Shown: positions 1 through 26,068 of the stretch, one piece after another
Numbering within the stretch: the stretch's first letter is position 1
Layout of the letters: each line of letters opens with the position of its first letter
IMG/VR virus record: IMGVR_UViG_3300042564_000781
Coordinates: 56,668-120,667 of that record
Strand: one strand, 5' to 3'
DNA: 64,000 bases
Source: a virus
Made by a program: the position numbers and the translations under genes
Notes under the pieces: model-generated
The model's database searches: none
The model's input: the letters and a program-made list of their open reading frames with translations, nothing else
What the model was told of the DNA's origin: nothing

Positions 1-1
1 T

Positions 2-3000
2 TTTATAGTAGAAGAAACATACGGACCAGCAGTACAATCAATTACAACAACACCTCTCGACCTTATACAAACTAAAAGAGATATTAGATCTCTAGTCGAT
101 GCAATCACATATGATCTAGCAAGAGGCGGCAACAGTCAGACTGTTGCATTTACTCTTTCATTTTTTGACGAACAGTACAGCTATAAATTTATTACGCCCA
201 GAGTTTCCTCTTCAATTACTGTTCTTATAACAGCCTTTAATCGAGTGTTTACACTAATCTCTGATATTTTAAATAATATAATAGTTGATCCAACGTTTCA
301 AACAATTTATCCGCAGATAACAGGCACTGTTGCCGGACTATCCCAAGCCCTAACGTCAGTACAATCATTTCAAAACATAGTTATTACTGCTCTAATTAAT
401 GAAAATATCAACAGTATACCTGCTCGAAATCAAGGTCTTACTGCAACTTTAATGGTTAAGACCGGAGCCTACCATGAAGAATTACCAATTGTAATTCCCG
501 CTAATACAGCACTTAATGGAGATGAACTCAGGGGTGTAATAGTTTACCCGAAGACAATTATTAATACTATTGCAACTAGATCATTTTCCGCAACAAATTT
601 ATTTAGAGTAAATACAACAGAAGGAATGATTAACAATACCGCAGTTCAGTTTGTATCAGTTAATCCAGTGTCCGGATTTAATACTGTATTCGGCGGAGTT
701 GTTGCCGGAACAACTTATTATGTAATTGGCAGCTCCATCACAAGCACTCAATTTTCAGTAAGTGCAATTCCAGGCGGCCCTCCAGTTACGCTATCAAATG
801 CTACTAGTCAAATGAAAGTATTTGGCGGCGATGCATTAAAGGACATGTTCCGTGTTCAAAATGGTTCAGGTATTAGAAACATGACATTATCTGGGCTGCT
901 AGGCACACTTACAGCACCAAATTCATTTACTACACGTCGTCCGACTGGTGGAAGTTTTGTAAGTTTAGATCCCGGAACCGGCATAGCCGATACCACAGCT
1001 CATATTTACAGAAGAAGTCCATATATTCAAAATGTAACGACTTTTGGTACAGGATGTGTTGGTTTAAAAATCGACGGCAGCTTGCACGCCCTTGGCAACA
1101 AGTCTATAGTGTGTAACGACTTTACACAAATTGTAAGTGACGGAGTTGGTATATACTGCACTGGACCCGGCGCACTTTGCGAAGCAGTGTCAGTATTTTC
1201 ATATTATGCATATGCTGGATACTTATCCGAAGCAGGCGGCCGTATACGTGCTACTAACGGCAACAGCTCATATGGTAACTTTGGAGTTATTGCTGAAGGA
1301 TTTGATACTACTGAAATCCCATCAGTTGGCACGGTATTTAATAGATACTACGAAGCCAGTGCAACTCCTATTAGTGCATTGGGCGCAACTGCTAACATTT
1401 TGAAGCTTCAATACAGTCATGCTGGGCAGGAATATATAACATCAACAACTAACTTGCTACAATATAGTAATTCATTTACTAACTGGACAAGTGACGGTAA
1501 TATTACCCTAATCCAGTCAATACTATCCCCGTTTGCTAATCAATCAGATGCATGGATTGCAACCGGTAATACCTCTGGAACTAACAGTAGCTATTTTTCA
1601 AAATCAATTACTATTGCACCATCGGGAGAAATATATACTAACATTGCTGGTATTAATATTACCGGCGGTGGCTTAGGAGCAACATTTGATATTATAGTAA
1701 CTAGTACGCAATATACAGTGACTATTAACAATGGAGGTACTGGATATGTTGCAACAAATCAGATTCGTATACTTGGCTCTCAACTAGGCGGAATTTCCGG
1801 AGTTAATGATCTAATTATTACAGTTACTGAACTATCAGGAACTACTATTACGACAATTACCTCAATTGGAGTAGTACAGATTGGTAGTGTACAACCATAT
1901 ACTGCAAGCATTTTCTGCAAACAGGGCACATCAACTACGTTTGATCTTGTAGCTACCTTTAGTGGTTATTCTGCAGCATCGAGTAGTATCAGTTACAACT
2001 TTAACACAAATACTATAACTCCGGGTAGTGCAACAGGCGGCATGACTCCTGTTGTATTTTCTGCAACGCCTATATCAACTAATCCTGGATGGGTTAGATT
2101 ATCATTTAGATTCTATGATGTATCCGGATTAAACAATACTCTTAAATTGACAATCTACCCAAGATCGCAACTAGGTAATAGCAGCTATACACTAATATAC
2201 GGAGCACAGTTAGAATTAGGCACCCGCACCGGGTTTTATCAAGAAACAACTACTGGAAGATATACAGCGTATGCAAATTATGACGTTGTAGGAGCAGGAT
2301 CCGGAGTTGATTTAGTTGCAGACGAAATTAGAGACCGTGGCATATATCAAACTCGTATATTAGAAGTTAACGGAGTTACCGGCGGAGTTGGACATAGACT
2401 ATCTACTAATAATGCACAAGCAGGCACTGACTCAACAATTACTATTGCTGGTTCAGATATTGCCGGCCCTAAGGACTATCTTGGAATGCGAGTATTTGTT
2501 AATAGCGGCTTAGGAGCAGGCCAATATGGAGCAATTTCAGCGTTTGACGCAGAATTAAAAATTGCATCAGTATTAAAAGAATCTTTTACTCAATTAGAAA
2601 TAACAACAAGTTCAAGTATTGGTAATATTTTTACGTTAGCACCAAGTGCTGATGTGTATTCATTATATAATAATCAACCAGTACAATTTGTTCCTACTAC
2701 CTACGACACTATTGTAACATTGGTAGGACAAAGTTCAGTAGAGGCAACTAGTACAATAGGAGGTCAAACTAATACTATGTATGTGACCAGCACAGCGCAG
2801 CTGACTGTTAACATGCCGGTAACATTTTCAGGAATAACCTATGGTGGCGTAACTTCAAATTTCACATATTATATAATTGCAATCCTTAACGAAAATGAAA
2901 TTCAATTAGGCTTAACAGTAGGCGGCATAGCTATCTTCTTAAATAATGATGACGGCAGCATGTCATTAAACTATCCGTCAAATACTGGGTATTTAGGTGC

Positions 3001-6000
3001 GCCGACTACTAATATGGATATAAATTTGCCAATATATTTTACAGGCGCAGTATTGTCAGAGATCGAAGCTAGTACTGATTATTTCATTAATGATGTCATT
3101 GACATTAATAATTTTACTATATCAGACACGTTAGTAACTCCTACTGCTACAAGCACCACAGCTATTAGTAATACCGTTACTGTAGATACAAGTGATACGT
3201 TAGTTCCGTTAAATCCTATTAAATTTGCAGGAACTGCATTCGGCTCAATCTTACCAAGCACTAAGTATTATATAAACCACATTGTTGACTCTACAAACAT
3301 TACTATTTCTCTCGGTACATTAACTACTACTGCAACTGCTACTCAAAATGAAGGAGAGTTAATAACAGTTGGAGATACTACTGGATTTGCTATTGGAAAT
3401 GCAATTAAATTTACAGGAACTACGTTCGGCGGTATTGTTAACGATCGAATATATTATATTTCGTACATTAATAACGCTACATCACTAATCGTTAGTTCAT
3501 CGTCGTCGGCATTATCTATTACTGCAACTAATACATCAACTAGCATCAACATTAGTGGAACCGTCTACAATAATGTTTTAACATTGATATCATCGAGTAA
3601 TTTAACACCAATGTATCCTGTAACATTTTCAGGGACTACATTTGGAAGTATCACAGCAGGTACTACGTATTTTATAAGTAGGATTTATGACTCAACTCGT
3701 ATATCAATTACTAATTCGATTATTTCAGTAACTGCAATTGAAACATCAGCAACCTCTAACTTAATACATGTCGAGTCTACTGCCGGATTTGTTGCAGGCA
3801 ACCCAATAATATTTGGAGGAGTATCATTTGGTGGTATAGTTTCAGGGCAATTATACTATATTTCTGCAGTTAACTCACCCACAGACTTTACAATTAGTAC
3901 AACGCCAACTGGATCAGCAGTGGTATTAACGGCCGGCACCGGAAGTATTACAGCAAGAACTCCTGCAGTAAATACTACAGTAACTACAGCAACTGGTTCG
4001 ATGATTGGAACTACTAGGGCTAGTGCTAGTCCAGTATTATTAACTTCTGCAATTGGGCTGTGTATTGTTAGGACAACCAGCTCAACAATCACTTTATCAA
4101 CTGCTACGGGCCTATTAACCGGTACATCAACTACCGTAAAGAAACAATTCACTAGTGATGCAGGCTCTATGGTAGGTACTTTTAGTGTACCTATACTTGG
4201 TGGTATTACTCAAGGAATCACCTACTACGTCCGTACTATTACACCGGGTGTATCAAATACATTTACAATAACAGCTACAAGTGGCGGCGGGACTAATGTA
4301 ACACTAACAGATACAGTAGGTTCTATGAAGATAGGGCAGATAGGCTGGGATCATATAAATCCAGGAACACCATTAGTAGCATCGTTTGACTCCACATCTG
4401 TGTACAGTATTGAGCCACGAATTATATATTCTAAACCCAATTTTACATCAACTAGCTCATTAGCTACTACACAAGCAGTTGGGGTTTCTTATGTTGATAT
4501 AGGATACGGCGGCGGTAAATTTACCGGACTTGCTAATGCTGATTCGACATTAACAGTTAGTGAAGATGGAGTACTATGGACACCACAATCATTACCATCT
4601 TCTGCAACATGGTCTAGTATTGCTTACGGAAGCAGTTATTGGGTGATTATATCATCCGGGGGTAGTGGTATTTCTGGCTCTAAAGTATTATACTCAAATA
4701 GCAATTTAGCAACATGGAAAACATCCTACTTGCCAAGTATTGGAAATTGGAGTAAAGTAGCGTACGGAAACGGAAAATTTGTTGCTATCACAAGCAATTC
4801 TGCAAGTTCGTCGTACTCATTAAATTTTGGCGCTACTTGGGTAGCAGGCACAGGATTACCTAATACTACATGGTCAGGACTAACATATGGCGCTGGCACA
4901 TTTGTTGCAGTAGCAACAGGCGGAACTCAGGCTGCAAGAAGTACTGATGGAATTACATGGGCATCTAGCACATTACCTAATTCAACTGCATGGTCGGGCG
5001 TTGCGTATGGAAACGGAAGATTCGTTGCAGTGTCATCAACTTTATCTAAAGCAGCATATAGCCTAGATGGGATTACATGGAGTCAATCATTATACAGTGT
5101 GCTCGGAACTAATATTGCCTATGGAAACGGAGTATTTATTTTAGCAGGAGATGACCCATTTTGTTATACAAGCGAAGATGGAATTGTATGGACCAAAACA
5201 GCAGTCGTTCCGGGTGTTGGACGAATGGTGTATGGATTATATGGTGTAAACGGAAGATTTGCATCAGTTAGTGGCCAGGATACGGCAATGGTAATTACTG
5301 CAGGCAGTCAGACTAAAGCAAGAGCCAGTGTTGCTGGTGGAAAAATTATAGAGATTAACGAATGGGATCCAGGTTCAAATTATATAAATTCCCCAACAGT
5401 AACCATAGTCGATGCTAATGCTACAGTTTTAACAGCAACGTCGCCACTACTTGGCTCTGGTGTATTAGGAAATCCTACATTTATTAATCGAGGCACAGGA
5501 TATAATACTAATACTACTACTATTACAATTACAGGAGATGGGTATGCTGAACGTTTTCAAACTGGTCTAGGAATCATTATTAGCAATTTGATAGTATTGC
5601 CAGTAGCCGGTGATAATCTTGCAATCGCTGGGAACGACACAATCTATAAAGTAACGTCTGCAACACTATTAGATGGATCAATTACTCCAAACATTATTGC
5701 TGAAGTATTTGTGTCACCTGAAATAACAGTTGGCTTATCACCTAATCAGGGAGTGCCTGTATCAATCAGGACAAAATACAGTCAAGTACGATTAACTAAT
5801 CATGACTACTTGAACATTGGATACGGAAACTTTGAAGAATCAAATTATCCATTGCTACCAGCAAGCACAGTATTGTCGCAAGAGAATGAGGCAGTTGATG
5901 CTAACTATGGCCGTGTGTTTTATTCTTCAACAGACCAAGACGGTAACTTCCGAGTTGGTAAACTATTTGCGGTTGAGCAGGCTACTGGTATTATTACGCT

Positions 6001-6421
6001 AAGTGCTAGTCAATTTGGACTAAGCGGACTAAATGAACTTAAAATTGGTGGCGTTGCAGTCGGCGGCAACAGTGTTATTATTACACAGTTTAGTACAGAC
6101 TCTACGTTTGTTGCAAATTCTAATAGCATTGTGCCAACACAAAAAGCAATTAAGGCATACTTAGGTGCAAAATTAACACAGGGTGGATCTAATACATTTA
6201 CCGGGCAATTAATTGCTGGTACTGTGTTAGTCGGCGGACCTGATAAGATTGCCAGTACTATTGTTGAAGGTAACGATGGATGGCATATAAACATGCCAAA
6301 TACAGTCGATGTAACGGGTGTAAATGACGGGAACGGCGGCGGCGCTGGCGGCTGGGATGGCGACGGAATGGCAATGGCATTCTTTCAAATGTCCTTTGCC
6401 CCAGGAAGTGCTGATCAATAA
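2..6421 (+). CDS. Giant virion structural/tail-fibre-like protein, 5'-truncated (pectin-lyase-like beta-helix, small beta-domain repeats, BNR-type propeller repeats)
   Basis: The frame is open from position 2 (FIVEETYG...KRDIRSLVDAITYDLARGGN), upstream of the GTG at 245, so the gene starts before the window. It is Thr/Ser/Gly-rich, has WxxIAYGNGKFVAI repeats, and shares its C-terminal KYSQVRLTxHD...STDQDGNF module with the next gene. Confidence 0.8.
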   Translation, partial: FIVEETYGPAVQSITTTPLDLIQTKRDIRSLVDAITYDLARGGNSQTVAFTLSFFDEQYSYKFITPRVSSSITVLITAFNRVFTLISDILNNIIVDPTFQTIYPQITGTVAGLSQALTSVQSFQNIVITALINENINSIPARNQGLTATLMVKTGAYHEELPIVIPANTALNGDELRGVIVYPKTIINTIATRSFSATNLFRVNTTEGMINNTAVQFVSVNPVSGFNTVFGGVVAGTTYYVIGSSITSTQFSVSAIPGGPPVTLSNATSQMKVFGGDALKDMFRVQNGSGIRNMTLSGLLGTLTAPNSFTTRRPTGGSFVSLDPGTGIADTTAHIYRRSPYIQNVTTFGTGCVGLKIDGSLHALGNKSIVCNDFTQIVSDGVGIYCTGPGALCEAVSVFSYYAYAGYLSEAGGRIRATNGNSSYGNFGVIAEGFDTTEIPSVGTVFNRYYEASATPISALGATANILKLQYSHAGQEYITSTTNLLQYSNSFTNWTSDGNITLIQSILSPFANQSDAWIATGNTSGTNSSYFSKSITIAPSGEIYTNIAGINITGGGLGATFDIIVTSTQYTVTINNGGTGYVATNQIRILGSQLGGISGVNDLIITVTELSGTTITTITSIGVVQIGSVQPYTASIFCKQGTSTTFDLVATFSGYSAASSSISYNFNTNTITPGSATGGMTPVVFSATPISTNPGWVRLSFRFYDVSGLNNTLKLTIYPRSQLGNSSYTLIYGAQLELGTRTGFYQETTTGRYTAYANYDVVGAGSGVDLVADEIRDRGIYQTRILEVNGVTGGVGHRLSTNNAQAGTDSTITIAGSDIAGPKDYLGMRVFVNSGLGAGQYGAISAFDAELKIASVLKESFTQLEITTSSSIGNIFTLAPSADVYSLYNNQPVQFVPTTYDTIVTLVGQSSVEATSTIGGQTNTMYVTSTAQLTVNMPVTFSGITYGGVTSNFTYYIIAILNENEIQLGLTVGGIAIFLNNDDGSMSLNYPSNTGYLGAPTTNMDINLPIYFTGAVLSEIEASTDYFINDVIDINNFTISDTLVTPTATSTTAISNTVTVDTSDTLVPLNPIKFAGTAFGSILPSTKYYINHIVDSTNITISLGTLTTTATATQNEGELITVGDTTGFAIGNAIKFTGTTFGGIVNDRIYYISYINNATSLIVSSSSSALSITATNTSTSINISGTVYNNVLTLISSSNLTPMYPVTFSGTTFGSITAGTTYFISRIYDSTRISITNSIISVTAIETSATSNLIHVESTAGFVAGNPIIFGGVSFGGIVSGQLYYISAVNSPTDFTISTTPTGSAVVLTAGTGSITARTPAVNTTVTTATGSMIGTTRASASPVLLTSAIGLCIVRTTSSTITLSTATGLLTGTSTTVKKQFTSDAGSMVGTFSVPILGGITQGITYYVRTITPGVSNTFTITATSGGGTNVTLTDTVGSMKIGQIGWDHINPGTPLVASFDSTSVYSIEPRIIYSKPNFTSTSSLATTQAVGVSYVDIGYGGGKFTGLANADSTLTVSEDGVLWTPQSLPSSATWSSIAYGSSYWVIISSGGSGISGSKVLYSNSNLATWKTSYLPSIGNWSKVAYGNGKFVAITSNSASSSYSLNFGATWVAGTGLPNTTWSGLTYGAGTFVAVATGGTQAARSTDGITWASSTLPNSTAWSGVAYGNGRFVAVSSTLSKAAYSLDGITWSQSLYSVLGTNIAYGNGVFILAGDDPFCYTSEDGIVWTKTAVVPGVGRMVYGLYGVNGRFASVSGQDTAMVITAGSQTKARASVAGGKIIEINEWDPGSNYINSPTVTIVDANATVLTATSPLLGSGVLGNPTFINRGTGYNTNTTTITITGDGYAERFQTGLGIIISNLIVLPVAGDNLAIAGNDTIYKVTSATLLDGSITPNIIAEVFVSPEITVGLSPNQGVPVSIRTKYSQVRLTNHDYLNIGYGNFEESNYPLLPASTVLSQENEAVDANYGRVFYSSTDQDGNFRVGKLFAVEQATGIITLSASQFGLSGLNELKIGGVAVGGNSVIITQFSTDSTFVANSNSIVPTQKAIKAYLGAKLTQGGSNTFTGQLIAGTVLVGGPDKIASTIVEGNDGWHINMPNTVDVTGVNDGNGGGAGGWDGDGMAMAFFQMSFAPGSADQ

Positions 6422-6470: not shown

Positions 6471-9400
6471 ATGGCTGAATTTAAACTAGGTAGAATTAGA
6501 TTTGTATGGAAAGGTCAGTGGACCGTTGGAACTCCATATCTAATAGATGACGTGGTAAGCAACGGCGGAAAGAGTTATATTTGTGTTGTAAATCACACTG
6601 CTTCTAGTCTTTTCGATACTGATTTGGACTATCCAGGAGTACCAAGATGGGAAATTGTCGCCGACGGAACACAATGGAATGGCAACTGGGAACCAGAGAC
6701 ATATTACAATCCGGGTGCAGTTGTCAAATACGGTGCATTAGTTTATATTTGTAAAACTGGTCACACATCGGCTACATATGTAGCACCTACTTATTTGGGA
6801 CTAGAAGACGATCAAGTAAACTGGGAATTGTTTGCTACTTCATTTAGCTGGGAAGGCACTTGGACAACTGCTACTCGATATAGACTTAATGATTTTGTAG
6901 TTTACGGCGGCACTACCTATGTATGTAATACTCCGCATATTTCTGCTGCAATCTCAGCAAGCATAACGGCAACTAATTTTACAGTCCTTGCCGGAACTGC
7001 TACCCTAACATTTGCATCAAAAGTAGTTGCACCATATGCTGTAGGAGCAACAATTACCTTAGCAGGCTTTAGTCCAGCAGCTACTACTTCTCCAGCAAAT
7101 AATATTAATACAACCTTTACTGTATTAACCTGCACTACAACCCAATTAACATTTGCGCTAACAGGTACATATACTAATTCGGTATTAGGTACTGTATCCG
7201 GAACAAGCCAGTTGGGATTAGAACTTGACGCAGCAAAATGGGATACGTTTAATCAAGGAATTACCTATCTAGGAGATTGGAATTCTGCAAGCCTTCCAGG
7301 CGGAGCCAATGTTAGATATAAGCAAAACGATATTGTAAAATGGGGAGCAGATCTATGGATCTGTATAACCCCACATACGTCAACCGGAGCAACAATAGAC
7401 ACTAGTAAGTTTAGTGTGTTTGTTAATGGATTCCAATTTGAAAATAGTTGGAATAATTCAACAGTATATCAAATAGGAGATACAATAACGTACGGCGGCT
7501 ATTCGTATATTGCTAAAACAAATCATACCAACAAACAACCAACTAGTAATCCTAGTGACTGGGCTGTATTTACTACGGGTATTAATTTTGTAGGTGAATA
7601 TGATGAAACTACTAATTATCGAGTTGGCGATCTTATTCGTAACGGTGCATACACATATATTGCTAGACTTGATAGTTTAGCGCAAACCCCTGTATCAGCA
7701 ACTACTTACTGGGCAAGATTGAATAGTGGATTACGCTGGACTAACACACCTGAAACTTATCTAGCAGTTGATTCAGTTGCTGTGTTACCCGGAGTAGGTA
7801 GCGGTGCTAAATTTGATGTTACTCGCACTGGCACTGTGTATAATGTTACGCTAACTTCAGGACAGGCTGGAATAAATTATGCGGCTCTTGATCGAATTAA
7901 AATTCTTGGCAGCAACCTCGGCGGCATTAGTCCAGCCAATGATATTACAATTACTGTTGTAACAGTTTCAACTAGCGCAGTTGCAACATTTACAGCATCT
8001 GGTCGATCAGTAACCTGGACAGTTGACACAGATTACTTATTAGGCGACACTGCATCATTTGGTGCGAATAGTTATATCTGCATTGATGCACATACTTCAA
8101 GTTCACTAAACAGACCAGATGCTGACGCACAGGGAGACTATTGGAATCTGTTAACAGCTGGTTCAGAATATAATATTCTTACAACCACAGGTGATCTAGT
8201 ATACTACGGCGACAACGGCCCTGAAAGACTGCCGGTTGGAACAAACGGCCAAGTGTTACGAAGCCAAGACGGCGTTCCAGTCTGGGCCAACTACGGATTA
8301 ATTAATAACTTAGTGTTTGTAGGACCATTGGGCCGAGATGTTGCTTACCCTGATGCTGGCTCAACGATTGACCAACCTTGGAAAAGTGTAAGGTATGCAG
8401 CTAAACAAGTTGAAGAAGGATACTTAAATCCGCAAGCTAAGATGCTGTTAGTTAAAAACAAACAGTTTATGATGAAAGAAATTACCAACTGGGTAAATTA
8501 TACTTATACTGTTAGAATTTCAGCCGCTGATTCCTTAGACGACATATTCACCTGTATCACTACTGTTAATCTAGTAGTAAATATGCCTATTAGTTTTACT
8601 GGAACAATTGGAGGAGTTACAGCAGGTGTAACTTATTATGTTAAAACTATTGTTAACGGTACAACATTTACAATTTCAGACTTGTCTGGAGGTACATTAC
8701 GTCAGTTAACTACCGGCTCGGGCACAATGACTGGATCATTGGTGTATGACTATGCGTTCTGCGAACGAGATACTGGATTAATTGTTGACGCATTAATTCA
8801 TGATATTACACACGGAGGCACCGGCAAAATTACTGCTGCCGCAAAAGCATACTATACTGCCGCAGGTAACGCTTACATTAATAACAATTTTGGTGCACAA
8901 ACTACACAAACCGTTGCAGCATACACTTATCTAAGTACCCTAGTAGAAAAAATCCTTGGCAATATTGCTTGGAGAAATTACCAAGCAATGAATGGAATTA
9001 CATCAGGTGTAATTCAAATAGTTGATACTTCATTTACTGCCGAAGCAGGCACTTCTATCACAGCAGCTGAATTACTGTCAATTATTACAAACGGCATTCT
9101 TGCAGGGTCAGTAACCGCTATACCTGTTGCAATTTATCCTAATACTACTATTTCAGTTAAAACTGGAACGTTCACAGAAGTGCTACCAATTGTGATTTCT
9201 CCATATACTGCGGTAGTAGGAGATGAATTACGTAGTTCAGTTATTCAACCAGCTACTGCAAATCCATTGTTAGCTACTGATAAAGCAAAAACTACATCAG
9301 CATTGAATCGTATTGCCTCAGTAGCCGGCGATATTGTGCAAAACATCGTAGTAACTCCTACAGTAGGAAATACTGAAACACAATATTATGTCGGCGGATA

Positions 9401-12400
9401 TGCGGGTAGTGGAACAACATCAACTGCTGTTGGAGCAAAAACTACTGTTATATCAACAATTTTATCAGGCGGCCTTGGCTCAGTTCCATCAACTGTAATT
9501 TCAGATCCTGCCGGATATGATGCTGGATATTTAAATGCACGTAGATTAGTTGTAGCTAACAAGGCATTCTTACAAGCAGAAATTAGTGCATGGATTAATG
9601 TACAAATAGCAGGTAATATTGCTCCGTTTGTTGGATTCACTTATGGTGGCACTGATCAAACAAACTGTGAACGAGATGTAGGGTATATTGTCGATGCTCT
9701 ACGATACGATTTAACCTATGGCGGGAACTTGGAAACTATTGTAGCTGCTCGAGCATACTATTCTTATGGATCATATGTTGGTGACTCTGCTTCAAAGCTT
9801 CGTGCGTTAGCAGTACAAAATCGTATTAAGAGTATCATTGATAATATTGCCGTCGGAGATAATTCAGGCTGGACTAAGTCTGTAGGCAATGCACTTAACC
9901 AGGATGATTCGTTACCACACGGATCTGTACCAGCGGGCGCATTTGCACAAGCACGTATCCAAGAAATATACAATACAATTGACACAGGGGTAACTCCAGA
10001 TACAATTGAACCTCCGACTAGTTGGGTTAGCAATGATCTTGTTCTAGCTAAAATAGCAATTACAAATTTAAAGGCTGGCATACAAGCTGGAGCAATTGAG
10101 TACATTAGTACAAAGTATCCAACATTAACATACAACACAGTCACTTGTTCTCGAGATGTTGGCTATATGGTTGATGCTGTAGCATACGATGTAATGTTTG
10201 GTAGTAATTTTAGATCTATTACGGCTGGTAGAAGTTACTATAGAGCAACAGCATCTGCACAGTATGTAATTGCAAACCAACTAGCAGCGACATTAGATAC
10301 TATAACATATATTGACACAGCGATTAGACAAATAACAACCGGTCAATCTGGCTCAGTTGGTAGCACATTAGCTGTTTCGAGAGTAGAGACTAGTGCCAAT
10401 ACTATGTATGATATTATTGCTAGCGGGTTAGGATCTATACCAACACTAGTATTACCAACACCAACTGGCGGCACCGGCAATGCATATGACAGCAATTATT
10501 TAAATGCCCGACAACAAATTGTAGAAAACTACGCATTCATCAAAGCTGAAATTGCTCAATATCTAAATGTTAACTATAATGCTGTTTGGGTAGCACTTGG
10601 TGCAACTGGCCAGGCAGGATGTGCTCGAGATATTGGCTACATCTTAGACGGAGTACGCTATGATATTACCTACGGTGGTAACTTACAATCACTAATTGTA
10701 GGTAGTGCATACTATTCAAATTACGTTTTAGCTATTGGGTCTGGTGAGCTTACTGCAACAGTTGCGGCCTACACTAGAATTAAAACAATCGTTGGACAAA
10801 TTGCACAACGTCAAACAGTAACACCTACTGTGGGTTATAGTGGTCCTTCACAATATTTAGGCGGTACCGGTGACCTAGTAGGTACCGCTGCAACCTTTGC
10901 TCAAGATCGGGTACAAGACGTTATTGATTGGGTTAGCAACGGTTACGCTAATGCAACTATTACGCCAAGTATTGCTTGGGCTAGTTCTGCACTACAAACA
11001 GCATTTGCAGAAGTTCAAGCAAAGAGATCTGAGATACAAGCTGATACGCTATGGTGGGTCTACAAGAATTATCAAAACTTAAACTTTAATGCTGATTTAT
11101 GTTCTAGAGACGCGGGCTATATTGTTGATGCGCTAAGTTATGACTTAGTATTTGGCAGTAACTTTGCTGCAATCACAGCAGGAAGAAGTTATCAACGTGC
11201 AACACCGTCGGCCCAAGTGGTAGCAACAGTACAGCGGCAAGCTGAATTAGGTTCAGTTAATTTTATCAAATATAAAGTTAAGCATATTGCAGCCTCGGGC
11301 GCAGTAGCACAGATTAATGCAATTGTTTCTGATGTGACTGGATTTATTAATGGCGGAGCAATTCCTCGAGTACAATGGACTAATCCATCAACGATTACCA
11401 GTGCATATGCTGCTGCGACCGTATTGTTAAGAGACAATGCACCATTTATTCAAGCAGAAATCACAGCATGGATCAATGTACAAATTGCGGCCAACGCTTC
11501 TGGATTTGTTGGATTACAATTCAGCAGATCAGCTTGCGAAAGAGATGTAGGTTTAATTATTGAAGCACTAGTATACGATTTAACCTATGGTTACGGTGTT
11601 GGTAATATTGGTAAAATTGCTACACTGATTGCAGGTAAAGCATATTACTCTGCACTAACAAGCGTATTACAAATAGATTCAGGCGACTCAACAGCTACAA
11701 TTGCAGCTTATAACAGATTAAAGGCTGTTGCACAGAGTGTAGTTCAAGACACCGCAGTAACTCCAAGTGCAGGTAATTCTGTATCTCAAGTAAGAGCAGT
11801 TACCGGCCAGACAGTTGGGTCAGTTGCTACTGCTACATCTGTAGGCACATTGGTTGATGTTATCACCAATATAATTACCAACGGTCTTACAACCGGTGTT
11901 CCTCAGATAACTATTTCTGCGGTTGCTGGCGGCACAACATTTACTAGCGGAACACATAACCTTGCAGTAGGAGATGTTGTTATACCACAATCTACTCCAA
12001 CTACAGGTAACGGTGGATTTGGCCTAGTTAGCGGAACAAGATACTATGTTGCATCTACACCGTTAGGCACAACATTTACATTGGCTGCATATCAAGGCGG
12101 TGCCGCAATTACTACCTTTACTAACGGTACAGGATTAACTATCGCTGCTGAGATTAACAACTTACCAAGTACAAGTTGGGTATCTGCATCTTTAGTTACT
12201 TTACGTAATGCATTACAATCAAATAAAGCAACTATTAAAAATCAGATTACACAATATATTGCTACTAACTATACTACGTTAGTATACAATTCTTCAACAT
12301 GTGAAAGAGACGTTGGCTTGATTGTTGACTACATTGCCTACGATATGATGTTTGACAGTAACTATCTAACAATAACCTCAGCAAGAAGCTATTTTAGAGC

Positions 12401-15400
12401 CCAGGCCTCGCTAGTAGTTGGAGCACAAAAAACAGCAACTGTTGCATCTTATAGATATCTAAAAACTTTATTACTAACAGTTGTAGCTAATGATGCTACA
12501 GCAACTCGAAAAATTAAAGTGCTGATGGATATCATTATCAACACAATGTTAAATGGTATAGGTTCTACATCAGAAGTAACTGGTACCATAACTTATAAAA
12601 ATAATATTGGATTGTATAACGCAGCAGAGTCTCTAAGATTGAATAAAGAATTCTTAGCAAGCGAAGCTACGTCATGGATTAGTGCAAACTTTGGCGGAAC
12701 TGTGACAACAACTACTGCAACTACTAACCTGTTTACTACTAGCTCAGCGCACAATCTAATAGTAAGCGACCCTATTAGATTCACTGGGTCTATTATTACA
12801 AGTAGCGGAGTAACGCAGAATACTACATATTATGTATTAACAACACCTTCTGCTACTACGTTTACACTAAGTACATCACAAACTCTTCCTATTCCAGTTG
12901 ACGTAACTGCTAACGGAAGCGGCTCAATGACTGTAAATTATGCGTTTGATGTAACTTCTTGTAAGAGAGACATGAAAGAATACATCGATGGTATCATCTA
13001 TGATTTAAGTTATACTGGTAACTATCGTTCATTACGTGCTGCAGAATTGTATAACAACGCAGTAAGCGGATCGACACTCGCTAATATGTTCTATGTTAGC
13101 AACGGTACAGGTTTAAGAAACTGTACATTAACCGGATTAAACGGAACACTAACAGAAGAAAATGAATACGGAACTAAACGACCAACTGCAGGCGCATATG
13201 TTGCATTAAATCCAGGATTTGGCCCAAATGATAGCAATGTATGGGTTCAAACAAGATCACACTATTCACAAAACGTTACTATGTTTGGTACCGGATGTAG
13301 TGGTGCTAAGATTGACGGCGCAATACATGCCGGTGGCAATCGAAGCATGGTTAAAAACGACTTTACAACAATTCTAAGCGACGGATTGGGCGTATGGGTT
13401 ACGGGTGCTAATTCATTAACTGAATTAGTTTCAGTGTTTAACTACTACGGATATGCAGGGTACTTAGCAGAGCTAGGCGGTCGTATCCGTGCTACTAATG
13501 GTAACAGCTCATATGGTACGTACGGTACCATAGCTGAAGGAACTGACACTTACGAACAACCAATTTTTGCAGTCGTTGACAATAGACAACAAGATGCAGT
13601 TATAAGCAATGTTGTAGTAAATGGTGTTTTAGGGACAATTCTTCGTGTAGAGTACTCTAATGCCGGCGTTAATCATACTAATGCAGATATTGGAATTAGT
13701 GGCGATGGCATTAATGTAGTAACAATCACTAACGAATTCCGTGATGGTGGTGTATTCAATACTAGAATTTTTGATCCTAATGATGGTAGTGCTACAGCAG
13801 ACTATCCAGGGTATGGCGGATCAAACTATGTAAATGCTATTAATGCTGCACAGGGTGGTTCTCTAGGTGAGTTAACTATTGCTAACTCTGATGTTGCATT
13901 AGCAACCGCATATCCTACTATGAGAATTATGATAACTGCTGGTACAGGTGTTGGTCAATATGCTAATATCTTAGATTACAACAACGGTACCAAACTAGTA
14001 AAAATTTATAAAGATAGTTTTGCTACGTTAACTGTTACTGGCACTGCTGTTACCAACAATCTTTTAACGGTTGCAAGTACTGCTACATTATTTGCAGGAA
14101 TGTCAATTTACTTAGGCACAACAGTTAACGGACTAACTGATAACACTTTGTATTACGTCAGAACTGCTAACTTCTCTAGTACGCAATTCTCTGTAAGTTT
14201 AACAGGCGCTGCAGGAACCGCAGTAACTATTACTACAACTACTGCTAGCGGATTAACTATTCCGTTGTACGCCGCAGGATGGGATCATGCTGTTCCAGGA
14301 ACAACAGTTTCTAATGCAATTGACTTAACTTCTAGTTATATTATCGAACCGCGTATTAGCTATACTGCTCCTGGATATACTGCAACTACAAGAACAGTAC
14401 CTGCTAATACATACATTGGCTCAACATTTGGTAATAATAAATTTGTTGCAATTGGCAACACTGGCACTGCTACAGCCTATAGCCTAGATGGAAAAACATG
14501 GGCATCGGGCGGAGTATTGCCAGTCAGTGCCAACTGGGGAGATGTTATCTTTGGTGGCGGATCTGGTGTAGTAGCTTCGATCACAGTAGGTGGTTTAGGC
14601 GGTGTCGGAGCAATCTTAACACCTATTATGGGAACTGCTAACAGCATTGGACTGCCGGGCGCTGACCAAGTAGTCGGAGTCACTATTGTCGACGGTGGCC
14701 GAAACTATACAACTGCTCCAACAATTGTGTTTACTCCAACAAATGGCGGCCTGGGGGCAGTTGCAGTGTGTACTGTGTTAAATGGAAAAATTGATGCAAT
14801 CTATATTGATAACGTAGGTTATCCAGGCACTAGTAACGGTTCAGGTTATAATTCTCCTCCTATTGTAACTGCAGATTCTAGTAAAATTACTAAGATGATA
14901 ACAAGCCAGTGGGGAAGAAACTATACAACTCCGCCAACTGTTACAGTAAGCGCACCAGTCAGTGCTACTGCATGGTCTAGTGGTGATGCCGCAACCAGCG
15001 GCAATTACTATTCTCATGCTAACGTAGTTGGTTTAGTAACAACAACTAACTACTACCAAGCAGGTGCCACAGGCACGTTTGGCTCAGTAGCACCTACATT
15101 CCAAACAGGAACTGGCGCAAGCGGAACATACGGTGTTGCATTAACTTATGTAGGAACCTTAGCAACTGGAACTGCTGTTTTGACTAATTCTGGCGTAAGC
15201 AGCATAACTATAACAGAACCGGGGCAGGGTTATACAAGTACACCTACAATTTCTGTAGTAGATACTTCTGCTAAGTTTGTTGCAATTTCAGGCAGCGGAT
15301 CAGTTGATGCTGCATATTTGCTAGCTAGCTCAGCTAACACCGCATCATGGACAGCAGGCAATAATTTACCTACATCTACTATGACAGGAATTGCATATGG

Positions 15401-17279
15401 AGTTCTTAACGGAGTTAGCACATATGTAGTAGTAGGCGGAACCGGATCTAGTTCAGCAGCTTCTAGTGTAACTGGAATATCTTGGACTACACGTTCATTG
15501 CCAACATTAGGATCTGGTAACTACTCAGCAGTGGCTTTTGGTAACGGACAGTTTGTAGCAATATCAACAGGTTCTACCCTAGCAACCGCAACAAGCACAA
15601 ACGGCACTACATGGGTAGCCGGAGGTAACTTGCCATCAGGATTTACTACTGGTACAAGCATTACCTACGGTAATGGACGTTTTGTAGCAATTTGTTCAGC
15701 ATCTGGAACAGCAACTGCCTACAGTATTGACAACGGTACTACATGGAGAAGCTACGGTGTTGGATTACCATCTACACAGACATGGTCCAAAATTAAATAT
15801 GGTCAAGGACAATTTATAGCAATTGCTACAGGTAGTACAGTATGTGCTACAAGCCCAGACGGTATCAACTGGACACTACGTACTATGCCAGGTAGCTCGT
15901 CTACTTGGTCAACACTATCATTTGGTAATATAAACTCTAGACCGTTATGGATTGCTATGAGTTCAACTAGTGGACAAAATGCAGCTTCTATTAATACCGG
16001 AGCACAAGCACTAGGACGTATAGCTGTAGCATCGGGCACAATGACTGAGGTTAGAATGGTTGAACCGGGCAGTGCATATCCTCAGGGAACTGTAACAGCA
16101 ACTACTGATATTACTAACTTGATTACTGCAGATACTACAGAAAACTTGATTGATAGTCAACCAATTGTATTTTCAAATTGTAACGGCAGTGGCATTGTAA
16201 CTGAAAAATTATATTATGTAATTGGATCAACTGTAACTAGCACACAATTTAAGGTTAGTCTAGTGGCAGGAAGTAGCACAGCAGTGGTATTAACCTCAGC
16301 TACTGGGTTAACTGGTACTTATAAAGCTGGACCGATTATAACACAGTTTGATCCTAACAAGGTTATAACAGCATCACTAAACCCACGCACTGGCAACGGT
16401 GTACTGGCTAACCCAAGTTTTTACAATAGAGGAAACACGTTTACCACAGCAACTGGTACATCTGCAGGTGACGGTAATGCTGATCTATATCAGCCTAGTA
16501 CATTTATTGCCGTTAGAAACTTACACAGAGTACCAGCAGCTGGGTCAAATGTGGTATTTGGTTCTTTACCAAGTACCTGGTATAAATTAGTTGCAGCAAC
16601 AAATGTTCTAGGCAATGCTGGAGAGTATACTGCTACATTCCAAATTAGCCCAGGAATTAGTGTATTAGAAGCGCCAATTGATGCAGATTTAATAACTACT
16701 ACTATTAAGTATAGTCAAGTTCGTTTAACTGGACATGACTTCTTGTATATTGGTACTGGAAATCAAGCACAGACTAACTATCCGTTTGTTGACCCTACTA
16801 CTGCTAGTATTGCGGCGCAAACTAATAGTTCAGGTGGAGGGCGTGTGTTCTTTACAAGTACTGACCAAGACGGAAACTTTAACGTTGGTAACTTGTTTGG
16901 AGTTCAACAGTCAACCGGTACTGCTACATTGAACGCCGATGCGTTTAACTTATCGGGATTACAATCCTTACAGTTAGGCGCATTGAATATTGGTGTTGGA
17001 TCAGCAATTATTACACAGTTTAGTACAGATCCGTATTTTACTGCAAACAGTGATAATATTGTACCTACACAGCGAGCAATTAAATCTTATATTACAGCCC
17101 AGATTGGTGGCGGACAGAGCTCATTAAATGTAAATACCCTAACAGCAGGTGTTGTGTATATTGCTAATGATTCTATTTCAACAACCAGTGGCGGTCAGTT
17201 AAATATAAAAGCAAAAATGAATTTTACAGGTGGAATTGACGGTGCTCCAGTAGCATTGGGATTCTTTTTACAACGATAA
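6471..17279 (+). CDS. Giant 3602-aa virion structural/fibre protein: CBM5/12-like Trp repeats, 8 CxRD helical repeats, pectin-lyase-like domain, propeller repeats
   Basis: Long uninterrupted ORF with N-terminal W-x5-Y-x2-GD-x-V-x-YGG repeats and the same domain skeleton as the upstream gene. Confidence 0.85.
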   Translation: MAEFKLGRIRFVWKGQWTVGTPYLIDDVVSNGGKSYICVVNHTASSLFDTDLDYPGVPRWEIVADGTQWNGNWEPETYYNPGAVVKYGALVYICKTGHTSATYVAPTYLGLEDDQVNWELFATSFSWEGTWTTATRYRLNDFVVYGGTTYVCNTPHISAAISASITATNFTVLAGTATLTFASKVVAPYAVGATITLAGFSPAATTSPANNINTTFTVLTCTTTQLTFALTGTYTNSVLGTVSGTSQLGLELDAAKWDTFNQGITYLGDWNSASLPGGANVRYKQNDIVKWGADLWICITPHTSTGATIDTSKFSVFVNGFQFENSWNNSTVYQIGDTITYGGYSYIAKTNHTNKQPTSNPSDWAVFTTGINFVGEYDETTNYRVGDLIRNGAYTYIARLDSLAQTPVSATTYWARLNSGLRWTNTPETYLAVDSVAVLPGVGSGAKFDVTRTGTVYNVTLTSGQAGINYAALDRIKILGSNLGGISPANDITITVVTVSTSAVATFTASGRSVTWTVDTDYLLGDTASFGANSYICIDAHTSSSLNRPDADAQGDYWNLLTAGSEYNILTTTGDLVYYGDNGPERLPVGTNGQVLRSQDGVPVWANYGLINNLVFVGPLGRDVAYPDAGSTIDQPWKSVRYAAKQVEEGYLNPQAKMLLVKNKQFMMKEITNWVNYTYTVRISAADSLDDIFTCITTVNLVVNMPISFTGTIGGVTAGVTYYVKTIVNGTTFTISDLSGGTLRQLTTGSGTMTGSLVYDYAFCERDTGLIVDALIHDITHGGTGKITAAAKAYYTAAGNAYINNNFGAQTTQTVAAYTYLSTLVEKILGNIAWRNYQAMNGITSGVIQIVDTSFTAEAGTSITAAELLSIITNGILAGSVTAIPVAIYPNTTISVKTGTFTEVLPIVISPYTAVVGDELRSSVIQPATANPLLATDKAKTTSALNRIASVAGDIVQNIVVTPTVGNTETQYYVGGYAGSGTTSTAVGAKTTVISTILSGGLGSVPSTVISDPAGYDAGYLNARRLVVANKAFLQAEISAWINVQIAGNIAPFVGFTYGGTDQTNCERDVGYIVDALRYDLTYGGNLETIVAARAYYSYGSYVGDSASKLRALAVQNRIKSIIDNIAVGDNSGWTKSVGNALNQDDSLPHGSVPAGAFAQARIQEIYNTIDTGVTPDTIEPPTSWVSNDLVLAKIAITNLKAGIQAGAIEYISTKYPTLTYNTVTCSRDVGYMVDAVAYDVMFGSNFRSITAGRSYYRATASAQYVIANQLAATLDTITYIDTAIRQITTGQSGSVGSTLAVSRVETSANTMYDIIASGLGSIPTLVLPTPTGGTGNAYDSNYLNARQQIVENYAFIKAEIAQYLNVNYNAVWVALGATGQAGCARDIGYILDGVRYDITYGGNLQSLIVGSAYYSNYVLAIGSGELTATVAAYTRIKTIVGQIAQRQTVTPTVGYSGPSQYLGGTGDLVGTAATFAQDRVQDVIDWVSNGYANATITPSIAWASSALQTAFAEVQAKRSEIQADTLWWVYKNYQNLNFNADLCSRDAGYIVDALSYDLVFGSNFAAITAGRSYQRATPSAQVVATVQRQAELGSVNFIKYKVKHIAASGAVAQINAIVSDVTGFINGGAIPRVQWTNPSTITSAYAAATVLLRDNAPFIQAEITAWINVQIAANASGFVGLQFSRSACERDVGLIIEALVYDLTYGYGVGNIGKIATLIAGKAYYSALTSVLQIDSGDSTATIAAYNRLKAVAQSVVQDTAVTPSAGNSVSQVRAVTGQTVGSVATATSVGTLVDVITNIITNGLTTGVPQITISAVAGGTTFTSGTHNLAVGDVVIPQSTPTTGNGGFGLVSGTRYYVASTPLGTTFTLAAYQGGAAITTFTNGTGLTIAAEINNLPSTSWVSASLVTLRNALQSNKATIKNQITQYIATNYTTLVYNSSTCERDVGLIVDYIAYDMMFDSNYLTITSARSYFRAQASLVVGAQKTATVASYRYLKTLLLTVVANDATATRKIKVLMDIIINTMLNGIGSTSEVTGTITYKNNIGLYNAAESLRLNKEFLASEATSWISANFGGTVTTTTATTNLFTTSSAHNLIVSDPIRFTGSIITSSGVTQNTTYYVLTTPSATTFTLSTSQTLPIPVDVTANGSGSMTVNYAFDVTSCKRDMKEYIDGIIYDLSYTGNYRSLRAAELYNNAVSGSTLANMFYVSNGTGLRNCTLTGLNGTLTEENEYGTKRPTAGAYVALNPGFGPNDSNVWVQTRSHYSQNVTMFGTGCSGAKIDGAIHAGGNRSMVKNDFTTILSDGLGVWVTGANSLTELVSVFNYYGYAGYLAELGGRIRATNGNSSYGTYGTIAEGTDTYEQPIFAVVDNRQQDAVISNVVVNGVLGTILRVEYSNAGVNHTNADIGISGDGINVVTITNEFRDGGVFNTRIFDPNDGSATADYPGYGGSNYVNAINAAQGGSLGELTIANSDVALATAYPTMRIMITAGTGVGQYANILDYNNGTKLVKIYKDSFATLTVTGTAVTNNLLTVASTATLFAGMSIYLGTTVNGLTDNTLYYVRTANFSSTQFSVSLTGAAGTAVTITTTTASGLTIPLYAAGWDHAVPGTTVSNAIDLTSSYIIEPRISYTAPGYTATTRTVPANTYIGSTFGNNKFVAIGNTGTATAYSLDGKTWASGGVLPVSANWGDVIFGGGSGVVASITVGGLGGVGAILTPIMGTANSIGLPGADQVVGVTIVDGGRNYTTAPTIVFTPTNGGLGAVAVCTVLNGKIDAIYIDNVGYPGTSNGSGYNSPPIVTADSSKITKMITSQWGRNYTTPPTVTVSAPVSATAWSSGDAATSGNYYSHANVVGLVTTTNYYQAGATGTFGSVAPTFQTGTGASGTYGVALTYVGTLATGTAVLTNSGVSSITITEPGQGYTSTPTISVVDTSAKFVAISGSGSVDAAYLLASSANTASWTAGNNLPTSTMTGIAYGVLNGVSTYVVVGGTGSSSAASSVTGISWTTRSLPTLGSGNYSAVAFGNGQFVAISTGSTLATATSTNGTTWVAGGNLPSGFTTGTSITYGNGRFVAICSASGTATAYSIDNGTTWRSYGVGLPSTQTWSKIKYGQGQFIAIATGSTVCATSPDGINWTLRTMPGSSSTWSTLSFGNINSRPLWIAMSSTSGQNAASINTGAQALGRIAVASGTMTEVRMVEPGSAYPQGTVTATTDITNLITADTTENLIDSQPIVFSNCNGSGIVTEKLYYVIGSTVTSTQFKVSLVAGSSTAVVLTSATGLTGTYKAGPIITQFDPNKVITASLNPRTGNGVLANPSFYNRGNTFTTATGTSAGDGNADLYQPSTFIAVRNLHRVPAAGSNVVFGSLPSTWYKLVAATNVLGNAGEYTATFQISPGISVLEAPIDADLITTTIKYSQVRLTGHDFLYIGTGNQAQTNYPFVDPTTASIAAQTNSSGGGRVFFTSTDQDGNFNVGNLFGVQQSTGTATLNADAFNLSGLQSLQLGALNIGVGSAIITQFSTDPYFTANSDNIVPTQRAIKSYITAQIGGGQSSLNVNTLTAGVVYIANDSISTTSGGQLNIKAKMNFTGGIDGAPVALGFFLQR
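8760..13020 (+). repeat. Eight protein-level repeats with core C-x-R-D-x-G-x-I-V-D-A-x-x-Y-D-x-x-[YF]-G-[GS]-N
   Basis: Cys codons at about 8760, 9666, 10146, 10620, 11100, 11535, 12300 and 12960. The core spacing is 145-160 aa. Confidence 0.9.
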
Positions 17280-19738: not shown

Positions 19739-20293
19739 ATGAAAATATATGTAAAGATTGATGAGAATGGAGATCCTGCATCATACCCAATAACCCAAGA
19801 AAATTTAAATCATGTCTTTGGAATGGGTACCGACTGGGATGACGAATTTGCCTTGACGCAAGGGTTTTCTGTAGTTAATAATTCTGAAATGCCCGCACTT
19901 GAAACATACACCGAAGTTACAAAAGGTGAAATTGTTAAAAACGCCCAAGGTAAAATTGAGCAGATGTGGTCTGTTACGGAAATTTCACGAGAAGAAAAAA
20001 TAAGAAGATGGATTCTAGGCCCACGAGAATATTACTTAATATCTTGCGACTGGACTCAACTCCCTGATGCTCCAATTAGTGATGAAGAAAGGGCACAATG
20101 GACAATTTATCGAGCAGCTCTCAGGAACATTACCGATACTACTGATATTGATATCTTAAAAGATAGAATTGATGTACCCTGGCCAGAGCCGCCGACAAAA
20201 CCGTCAAAAGATACCAAGTATGCAATAGCTCCACCACCGCTACCAAGATTGGATCCACTTGCACTAATAATACCACCAGTAGAACCGGTATAA
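19739..20293 (+). CDS. Tail fibre assembly chaperone
   Basis: Contains the R..L...DWTQLPDAP...W..YRxALRxI...PWPxPP motif typical of phage tail assembly chaperones. Confidence 0.8.
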   Translation: MKIYVKIDENGDPASYPITQENLNHVFGMGTDWDDEFALTQGFSVVNNSEMPALETYTEVTKGEIVKNAQGKIEQMWSVTEISREEKIRRWILGPREYYLISCDWTQLPDAPISDEERAQWTIYRAALRNITDTTDIDILKDRIDVPWPEPPTKPSKDTKYAIAPPPLPRLDPLALIIPPVEPV

Positions 20294-22229: not shown

Positions 22230-22249
22230 AATAACGTAGCCTTGTTGTA

Positions 22250-22301
22250 CAGTTACTTATCAGGAATTCTCACTCCTTGTTAACATCGTGATAAGTAACT
22301 G
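22250..22301. promoter_or_regulatory. Divergent twin late-type promoters forming a perfect 13-bp inverted repeat
   Basis: CAGTTACTTATCA (22250-22262) and TGATAAGTAACTG (22289-22301). Each arm contains gaTAAGTA pointing outward into one operon. Confidence 0.7.
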
Positions 22302-22316
22302 CATAGAGGAATACAA

Positions 22317-24507: not shown

Positions 24508-24511
24508 TTAT

Positions 24512-25453: not shown

Positions 25454-25456
25454 CAT

Positions 25457-26065: not shown

Positions 26066-26068
26066 AAT

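Follow-up and report, generated by a model that had tools for sequence, protein, structure and literature searches.

The 64,000 nucleotides analysed here, referred to as the window, are bases 56668-120667 of the 120,667-base virus record IMGVR_UViG_3300042564_000781, for which CheckV gives a completeness of 33%. The window contains the gene for a giant virion protein of 3602 amino acids (aa), in which eight segments each carry a Cys-x-Arg-Asp motif (C-x-R-D or CxRD; Table 1). A preliminary description of this DNA had suggested that these segments may be a virion-borne chain of phycobiliprotein-fold domains made up of alpha-like and beta-like units. Profile comparison, AlphaFold2 (AF2) models and structure search bear out the fold and place the CxRD motif on the helix that carries Cys84 in phycocyanin, whereas the alpha/beta part of the proposal was not supported. 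In our judgement the repeats are almost certainly homologues of phycobiliproteins with the same globin-like fold, as profiles and models concur, and to the further reading that these domains carry covalently bound bilin we assign a probability of about one half.

Table 1. Features of the window discussed in the text (nucleotide positions of the window; scores of types A and B in bits from a hidden Markov model (HMM) of each type)
Feature	Position	Strand	Start of Cys codon	Evidence and remarks
Giant virion protein (baseplate / tail-fibre module), 3602 aa, eight domains	6471..17279	+		open frame; PHROG tail-fibre families
Repeat 1, Cys764, type ambiguous	8721..9128	+	8760	HMM envelope residues 751-886; FCERD; A 75 / B 67
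Half copy, C-terminal half, no CxRD	9249..9494	+		envelope residues 927-1008; profile positions 86-153 only
Repeat 2, type A, Cys1066, YDLTYG	9501..10004	+	9666	A 169.8 vs B 78.9
Repeat 3, type B, Cys1226, YDVMFGSN	10002..10460	+	10146	B 163.2 vs A 89.3
Repeat 4, type A, Cys1384	10470..10970	+	10620	A 149.9 vs B 82.4; first half of folded A+B pair
Repeat 5, type B, Cys1544	10956..11384	+	11100	B 144.6 vs A 62.8; folded alone too
Repeat 6, type A, Cys1689	11379..11906	+	11535	A 146.1 vs B 84.7
Insert of ~83 aa between repeats 6 and 7	11907..12155	+		gap between HMM envelopes
Repeat 7, type B, Cys1944	12156..12608	+	12300	B 148.1 vs A 91.2
Repeat 8, Cys2164, divergent, type ambiguous	12807..13289	+	12960	family HMM E 1.4e-18; SCKRD; A 27 / B 28
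Best-scoring of six CBM_5_12 (carbohydrate-binding module 5/12) stretches	6858..6950	+		PF02839 E 2.9e-25; residues 130-160
Upstream paralogue, truncated by window start	2..6421	+		2709-aa frame in record; phrog_9851 tail fibre E 2.4e-68
Sole domain copy of paralogue, Cys-less (TKRD)	1..400	+		starts ~30 nt 5' of window; record 56636-57067; E 2.1e-19; E 3.5e-22
Tail-fibre assembly chaperone-like gene, closes fibre module	19739..20293	+		phrog_4912 E 3.4e-12; phrog_4697 E 1.4e-9

The eight motifs of the preliminary description were counted again, and both peptides quoted there were found. They follow each other at distances of 302, 160, 158, 160, 145, 255 and 220 aa, which reproduces the central spacings of 160, 158, 160 and 145 aa; the distance of 255 aa between repeats 6 and 7 is due to the insert of about 83 aa. 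From the composition of the protein (21 Cys, 99 Arg and 151 Asp per 3602 residues) about 0.02 C-x-R-D motifs are expected by chance, whereas eight are observed, and between residues 700 and 2200 there are no cysteines besides those of the motifs. In the alignment of the eight segments the Cys, Arg and Asp of the motif, a second Asp at position +14 and one Tyr are invariant. The segments are homologous repeats.

For the assignment of types, one HMM was built from the A halves and one from the B halves of the pair alignment, and the bit scores of each repeat were compared. The alternation of two types along repeats 2 to 7, as described before, was confirmed in this way. Beyond the eight repeats, the protein contains the half copy at residues 927-1008, between repeats 1 and 2, and two short N-terminal fragments, which were absent from the preliminary description. 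The Cys-less copy reported for the upstream paralogue is present as a TKRD copy from nucleotide 71 of the window onward and is the only copy in the 2709-aa frame.

Homology to phycobiliproteins was found at the level of sequence profiles. The profile of the eight copies, compared with all PDB sequences, gave 41 matches at E<=10, 39 of which are phycobiliproteins, and the first 38 rows consist of this family throughout. The best match, with an E-value of 6.2e-4, is the alpha subunit of C-phycocyanin (3brp_A), where profile positions 6-70 lie on residues 36-105 and the motif Cys falls on Cys84. From IMG/VR, 138 related loci were gathered, and a profile of 82 diverse copies reached a best E-value of 3.2e-5 in the PDB, the first 29 rows being phycocyanin alpha without exception. 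Both values are significant, and the similarity to the phycobiliprotein superfamily that had been proposed is thus visible. The comparison of the two repeat types with alpha and beta subunits is not supported, since by sequence both types are closest to phycocyanin alpha.

Structure prediction points in the same direction. The AF2 model of repeats 4 and 5, computed from an alignment of 84 rows, is all-helical, in line with the helical appearance noted earlier, with a mean pLDDT of 90.5 and a pTM of 0.87. It was submitted to an exhaustive structure alignment against 48,161 representative chains, independent of Foldseek. Here, ranks 1-8 were all phycobiliproteins or ApcE (Z 15.1-12.6, rmsd 2.1-2.8 Å, 118-150 residues), among them phycoerythrin 5aqd_M (Z 15.1, 2.6 Å, 150 residues), allophycocyanin 8or7_A (Z 14.3) and the ApcE bilin domain 4xxi_A (Z 13.6), although helical models can score Z values of about 13-14 through arrangement alone. 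The list continues with a bilin-binding photocobilin (Z 12.3), after which haem globin sensors appear. Because this list is dominated by the A domain, the B copy (repeat 5) was folded separately (100 rows, pLDDT 88.2); its ranks 1-8 were again phycobiliproteins or ApcE, with Z 14.8-12.8, rmsd 2.2-4.0 Å and 115-128 residues, and photocobilins took ranks 9-10. The ranking is specific for the family in both searches and agrees with the sequence comparison, and on these grounds we take fold and homology as established: both models predict a globin-like phycobiliprotein fold rather than a non-globin bundle.

Two narrower assignments were rejected. An identity as haem globin or globin-coupled sensor was discarded since no invariant or near-invariant His column exists, the invariant columns being C, R, D, D and Y; haem globin folds rank below phycobiliproteins in both structure searches (Z 11.9 or less). 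Membership among the antenna subunits in the narrow sense, which are free proteins of about 160-180 aa in alpha/beta rings, was discarded as well, since the repeats stand in tandem in a 3602-aa phage protein and the phage clade lacks psbA. A prediction of a three-copy A+B complex, set up for a three-fold ring, scored 0.00 in both runs, which were made without control runs, and allows no verdict.

The CxRD site is strongly conserved in the whole family. Conservation was assessed on 830 distinct copies, taken from the window and from the 138 related loci; these copies are related to each other, so that the counts are not independent. The retention is 92% for Cys, 94% for Arg and 97% for Asp, and Lys precedes the Cys in 58%. 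The complete triad is found in 760 of the 830 copies and in all eight copies of the window. Where the Cys is retained (766 copies), Arg was lost six times and Asp never; where it is lost (64 copies), Arg has gone in 43 cases and Asp in 26. Cys, Arg and Asp thus behave as a unit. The pattern K-C-x-R-D-x-G-Y of the family matches phycocyanin alignments (KCARD in phycocyanin), and the motif lies on the helix equivalent to that of Cys84. According to Rockwell et al. 2023, CXRD is the chromophore-binding motif of phycobiliproteins, whose Cys bonds the A ring of the bilin (PMC10151467). The family is large: in a search of 1.84 billion proteins, 1574 representative ones matched at E<=1e-3, and the number of matched stretches in one protein goes up to 37.

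The protein that carries the repeats was compared with PHROG, where the best families were phrog_9851 (E 2.7e-152), phrog_4527 (E 2.1e-66) and phrog_5342 (E 6.8e-43). The gene order is that of a tail module: a major head protein and two baseplate-wedge proteins (1344 and 1970 aa) are followed by the 2709-aa paralogue and the 3602-aa protein, and on its 3' side lie a small fibre-like protein, a 690-aa protein and the tail-fibre assembly chaperone. Homologues of tail sheath, tube, terminase, gp32, UvsX/Y, helicase and primase follow further downstream. Both similarity to tail-fibre families and a position in the tail module were therefore found, and the 3602-aa protein is part of the host-recognition apparatus (baseplate / tail-fibre module) of a T4-like phage.

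Two further elements of the same protein should be mentioned. Six CBM_5_12 stretches (Pfam PF02839) lie in its N-terminal part, in a Trp/Tyr-rich array (window positions ~6471-8150), and PF02839, a chitin- or carbohydrate-binding family, is common to most close homologues. By its sequence, this array is likely to be a glycan-binding tip or anchor. A short motif of the form YYV/YYI...F-x-[IVL]-[ST] occurs four times in the 3602-aa protein and eight times in the paralogue, and is placed just ahead of repeats 1 and 8. This suggests a second small type of repeated domain, interleaved with the globin domains.

The phage itself can be placed by its TerL. It shares 85% identity with the TerL of G001, a record of 364,554 bases that is 100% complete, 58-64% with that of four other records of 266-332 kb and 31-36% with those of 18 named cyanomyoviruses and the IMG/VR records G006 and G007. 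In a TerL tree from a quick search, the window and the five large relatives form a separate and fully supported clade. The source is an uncultured T4-like phage from a clade of phages of roughly 270-365 kb. psbA is absent from all six records of the clade, that of the window included. For this reason, and in view of the 31-36% TerL identity to Kyanoviridae, we withdrew the label cyanophage; the gene content is T4-like, with 2-oxoglutarate (2OG) oxygenases, halogenases and carbamoyltransferases as in cyanomyoviruses. The domain occurs in all six records with 6-21 matches each. In G003, the TerL frame (G003:C1:26682-29252) is 862 aa long and its match is split, with residues 1-89 followed by residues 71-529 about 930 nucleotides onward. 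Such a split match suggests an insertion in frame, for instance an intein.

Haem oxygenase is encoded in four of the five large relatives, G001 among them, and a ferredoxin-dependent bilin reductase lies 0.3-2 kb away in the same four. Domain and cassette share the genome in these phages without being adjacent: in G001 the domain genes are at about 54, 66, 212 and 321 kb and the bilin cassette at 269-271 kb. A free phycobiliprotein gene was not found in the window's own 33%-complete record. For phages thought to infect non-phototrophs, the purpose of a cassette of haem oxygenase and reductase was called 'still enigmatic' in a 2024 study (PMC11480375), which names a bilin-binding globin of the type of the bilin biosynthesis-associated globins (BBAGs) as 'one possibility'. 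In section 14 of that study a phage structural protein is not suggested as the target.

The domain is also widespread in cultured cyanophages. A tblastn search with the repeat region against 50,697 phage records resulted in 78 matching records; 77 of them bear cyanophage names, and the remaining one is called 'Marine virus'. Among them are S-PM2, Syn1, S-RSM4, S-RIM44 and S-CAM4, where the annotation of the carrier reads short tail fibre, tail protein or baseplate wedge. In BFVD, 22 structural matches were obtained at E<=1e-3, the named ones being proteins of Synechococcus phages. Neither among the 78 phage records nor among the named BFVD matches was an annotation as phycobiliprotein-like encountered. 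By the 82-copy profile, 11 domain matches were counted in S-RSM4, nine in S-PM2, seven in Syn1, five in S-CREM1, four each in P-HM1 and P-HM2, and none in P-SSM2.

In the mechanism that we propose, each domain would be a bilin-binding module, whose conserved Cys would receive a bilin during virion assembly inside the infected cell. The bilin could stem from the host, or the phage could make it with a haem oxygenase and a ferredoxin-dependent bilin reductase of its own. Attachment might be self-catalysed as in BBAGs, or might be aided by CpeT in cyanomyoviruses; in ApcE, bilin attachment proceeds without a lyase. The finished particle would then bear a row of pigments on its host-recognition apparatus. 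As a speculation, such an array might make fibre or baseplate responsive to light and so gate adsorption. The particle would in that case be a photoreceptor, with rows of bilin-loaded domains on baseplate and fibres that activate the adsorption apparatus upon illumination; we regard this last step as doubtful.

The adsorption behaviour of some cyanomyoviruses is of interest in this respect. P-HM1 and P-HM2 were described by Liu et al. 2019 as not adsorbing in the dark, and P-SSM2 as adsorbing there (PMC6628666). For S-PM2, the same article, citing Jia et al., gives light-dependent adsorption that is independent of host photosynthesis. The domain is present in P-HM1, P-HM2 and S-PM2 and absent from P-SSM2. 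This distribution fits a phage-side photoreceptor, although the correlation is based on three phage types and P-SSM2 belongs to the clade that has neither the domain nor CpeT (see below).

A number of observations stand against this reading. The proposed bilin binding is deduced from homology and conservation of the site. On the side of the sequence, the 3602-aa protein has no PF00502 match at E<=1, and only one of the eight window copies reaches PF00502 singly, with an E-value of 0.01. In favour of the homology, a precomputed PF00502 match exists for 16 of the 120 best full-length homologues, and on rescanning, nine of nine flagged homologues exceeded the Pfam gathering score (26-50 bits vs 22.2); these nine were pre-selected as flagged, and their scores are sums of many weak stretches, none of which passes singly. 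The B-type profile alone is weak against the PDB, with one phycocyanin at E 0.0036 and then noise. The 82-copy profile alignment shows a gap of 11 residues relative to phycocyanin in the loop preceding the Cys helix. On the side of the structure, Foldseek gave no match in the PDB at E<=1e-3 for the A+B model; its rows, at E 0.04-0.4, begin with fused haemoglobins (E 0.04), followed by smURFP (TM 0.74, 132 columns) and dozens of phycobiliproteins.

The gene inventories also count in part against bilin binding. The preliminary description had pointed to bilin genes elsewhere in the genome as a test; they are present in four of the five large relatives, whereas haem oxygenase, bilin reductase and CpeT were not found in the window's own 120.7-kb record, which is 33% complete. 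The lyases CpeT and CpeS are each absent from all five large relatives. We take P-SSM2 to carry ho1, pebS and pcyA, and it lacks the domain in spite of its bilin genes; phage bilin genes can therefore not exist solely for the repeat protein. For P-SSM2, the corresponding column of Table 3 in Sullivan et al. 2010 (PMC3037559) shows PebS and Ho1 and a dash for PcyA.

The distribution of cpeT was at first sight more favourable. We scored 21 genomes, the domain by the 82-copy profile and CpeT by PF06206, both at E<=1e-3. The set of 16 cyanomyoviruses of Sullivan et al. 2010 was included in full and was supplemented by S-RSM4, S-CREM1 and three IMG/VR contigs of large size that were obtained via psbA (80 loci were sampled, and only three contigs had at least 149 kb). 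Domain and CpeT were found together in 14 genomes, the domain alone in two (S-ShM2 and P-SSM7), CpeT alone in none and neither of them in five (P-SSM2, S-SM2, S-SSM7, G007 and G008). Five genomes had been picked by their published cpeT status before the domain status was known, and all five turned out as predicted. In Syn9, S-SM1 and P-SSM4 the domain gene and cpeT are about 55 kb apart, so the co-occurrence is not mere linkage. However, four of the five double-negative genomes form one TerL clade (SH-aLRT 96, quick tree), and the contig of the fifth contains no TerL. This distribution possibly reflects a single event and is weak evidence, and we rejected its use as independent statistics.

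Adjacency was set aside as well. In S-PM2, Syn1 and S-RSM4 a distance of 0.7-1.5 kb separates cpeT from the giant gene, which lies downstream of it; by coordinates, cpeT is within about 3-7 kb of a repeat match in about 16 phage groups. The site is described as a variable island, the gp5 'hot-spot' (PMC3037559), the fibre genes beside cpeT in P-HM2 lack the domain, and the two genes are distant in the three phages named above. The neighbourhood of cpeT and the giant gene may thus be incidental. In P-HM2 (NC_015284.1:19862-27654), the genes directly after cpeT encode a YadA-domain protein and a tail fibre protein of 1559 aa, both without the globin domain; this phage has its four domain matches elsewhere, at ~55-57 kb and at 83 kb, in two further giant frames.

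Some of these records call for a remark of their own. Table 3 of Sullivan et al. 2010 lists CpeT-like genes of 432 and 447 nucleotides for P-SSM7 and S-ShM2 (PMC3037559). With PF06206 at E<=1e-3 no CpeT was found in P-SSM7 (NC_015290.1) or S-ShM2 (NC_015281.1), where the candidates were scored and failed; the listed copies must therefore be very divergent. Conversely, CpeT of Syn1 is annotated in the record and reaches E 1.5e-35 with PF06206, whereas no CpeT is shown for Syn1 in that table (PMC3037559). The contig G006 (193 kb, 100% complete, cyanomyovirus-like) apparently has two CpeT-like genes about 2 kb apart at 106168-108579, together with seven domain matches. In S-ShM2, the TerL match (NC_015281.1:108612-109706) covers residues 11-386 only and includes one TGA and one TAA, which may mean a split or interrupted gene. 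In the RefSeq record of S-PM2 (NC_006820.1:165928-177267), sixteen tRNA features lie inside the coding sequence of the 3779-aa giant and share the locus tag S-PM2t009, which looks like an error of annotation coordinates.

Several explanations compete with bilin binding. The domain could be a structural spacer, an alternative that the preliminary description also offered: a captured and multiplied globin domain of phycobiliprotein or BBAG type which serves as a rigid helical block in a long fibre or baseplate arm and binds nothing, the triad being kept for folding or for packing of domains or chains against each other. We consider this a tenable though not the favoured alternative. The variable copy number, with up to 37 matched stretches per protein and 2-21 per genome, is typical of modules that set a length, and copies without C, R and D persist (22 of 830), as does the Cys-less copy of the paralogue. 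The most invariant residues of the family are Asp +14 (~100%), Tyr +30 (95%) and Asn +20 (79%), which are unmatched in phycocyanin alignments, Asp +14 aligning with a Cys and Asn +20 with a Thr of phycocyanin alpha; they point to a constraint peculiar to this family. One large relative (G002, 93% complete) has 21 domain matches but lacks both haem oxygenase and bilin reductase, an argument against the domain being strictly tied to bilin genes. Reports on coloured phage particles were not found in the literature outside subscription journals either. This last point weighs little, because, as we estimate, even 1e12 particles per ml would be barely coloured if each held between tens and a few hundred bilins. 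What a spacer leaves unexplained is the 92-97% retention of the bilin-holding residues across lineages with a TerL identity of 31-36%, the loss of Arg and Asp almost solely alongside that of Cys, and the absence of Cys elsewhere in about 1500 residues. Nor does it account for phages without psbA that still carry the cassette of haem oxygenase and bilin reductase.

If bilin is bound, it need not act in sensing. A pigment could screen or quench light and reactive-oxygen damage, or photosensitise the host surface; such a role shares the evidence for binding and is in accord with the photoinert behaviour of BBAGs, in which binding does not entail sensing (PMC10151467). Pigments on baseplate and fibres are poorly placed to shield DNA when compared with pigments around the capsid, and we judge this role improbable. 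The conserved Cys might also form an inter-chain disulfide, another covalent link or a metal centre that locks the fibre. One strictly conserved Cys per domain in a region otherwise free of Cys would suit this, as would the invariant acidic residues nearby (Asp +3, +9 and +14). Against it, the Cys occupies the helix position at which phycocyanin has its thioether Cys; Arg and Asp are its partners in both proteins, and the Lys ahead of it is often shared. Further residues of the kind that usually bind metal, such as a second conserved Cys or a His, are absent from the domain. A role of this kind is very improbable.

Should the domains bind bilin, they would be the first pigmented component of a virion and a new, naturally concatenated scaffold of small bilin-binding domains. 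For phage bilin synthesis genes and the lyase, a protein with dozens of intact predicted attachment sites is an obvious candidate acceptor. If the particle were indeed a photoreceptor, haem oxygenase, the bilin reductases (PebS, PcyA, PcyX) and CpeT of phages, whose purpose has long been unexplained, would serve at least in part for the pigmentation of the virion and not of the host antenna, and this would extend to phages of non-cyanobacterial hosts. On the same reading, the light-dependent, photosynthesis-independent adsorption of some cyanomyoviruses would gain a phage-side mechanism. If no bilin is bound, the repeats still show clearly that the fold of an antenna protein was taken over as a module of phage fibres.

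Directly 3' of the fibre module, a block of modification-type genes extends over window positions 20335-30649. It comprises three tryptophan-halogenase-like genes (20335-21504 on the minus strand, 22317-23906 and 29168-30649), four 2OG-Fe(II) oxygenases (21501-22229 on the minus strand, 23899-24507, 25457-26065 and 27882-28544), a Nol-like carbamoyltransferase (26069-27892) and a conserved gene of unknown function (24512-25453, phrog_8954). The targets of this block might be a small molecule or the fibre proteins themselves. The window further contains two distinct endonuclease V (denV-like) genes, at 28541-29167 and 35458-35973, in one phage.

Among known systems, the phycobiliproteins (PF00502) are one close parallel. 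The repeats share with them the globin-like fold, a domain length of about 145-160 aa and a profile similarity centred on helices B to E, and their CxRD is in register with Cys84, often as K-C-x-R-D-x-G-Y. Phycobiliproteins are free subunits, whereas the repeats of the window are eight tandem copies within a virion protein of 3602 aa. In comparison with phycocyanin, the loop ahead of the Cys helix is shorter, and the repeats have an invariant Asp (+14), Asn (+20) and Tyr (+30) of their own.

A second comparison is offered by the BBAGs, described by Rockwell, Martin and Lagarias 2023 as phycobiliprotein paralogues outside antenna complexes that are associated with bilin biosynthesis (PMC10151467). 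As reported there, BBAG-1 and BBAG-3 carry CXRD and bind several bilins without a lyase, and the BBAGs occur in organisms that encode haem oxygenase and bilin reductase; they were photoinert in the assays described and are without known function (PMC10151467). The phage clade resembles them in having haem oxygenase and bilin reductase (four of five relatives) and no CpeT or CpeS. The BBAGs are single-domain bacterial proteins clustered with biosynthesis genes, whereas the phage domains are repeats in structural proteins. The globin-like bilin domain of photocobilins or photoglobins (8j2w, 8j2y) gave the next-best folds, with Z 12.3 and 11.2 for the pair and 12.0 and 11.5 for the B copy. Photocobilins are B12-binding photoreceptors, and the window protein has no B12 domain; the lineage of photoglobin and BBAG-2 is described as lacking CXRD (PMC10151467).

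The same domain family is present in giant proteins of T4-like cyanophages, such as YP_195253.1 of S-PM2 ('T4-LIKE GC 734', annotated as short tail fiber protein) and, as further carriers for comparison, the gp7-like 'baseplate wedge' giants of S-WAM1, S-SZBM1 and S-CREM1. They share with the window protein the giant size and the place in the tail module beside gp12-like or wedge genes. Their identity to the window repeats does not reach 30% in the best record or 60% in any of the 78 records, and the N-terminal CBM_5_12 array sets the window protein apart from them. In the literature outside subscription journals, we found no prior description of phycobiliprotein-like domains in phage virion proteins. 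Fold and motif are thus those of a known superfamily, and what appears to be new is their arrangement as tandem arrays inside virion proteins of phages.

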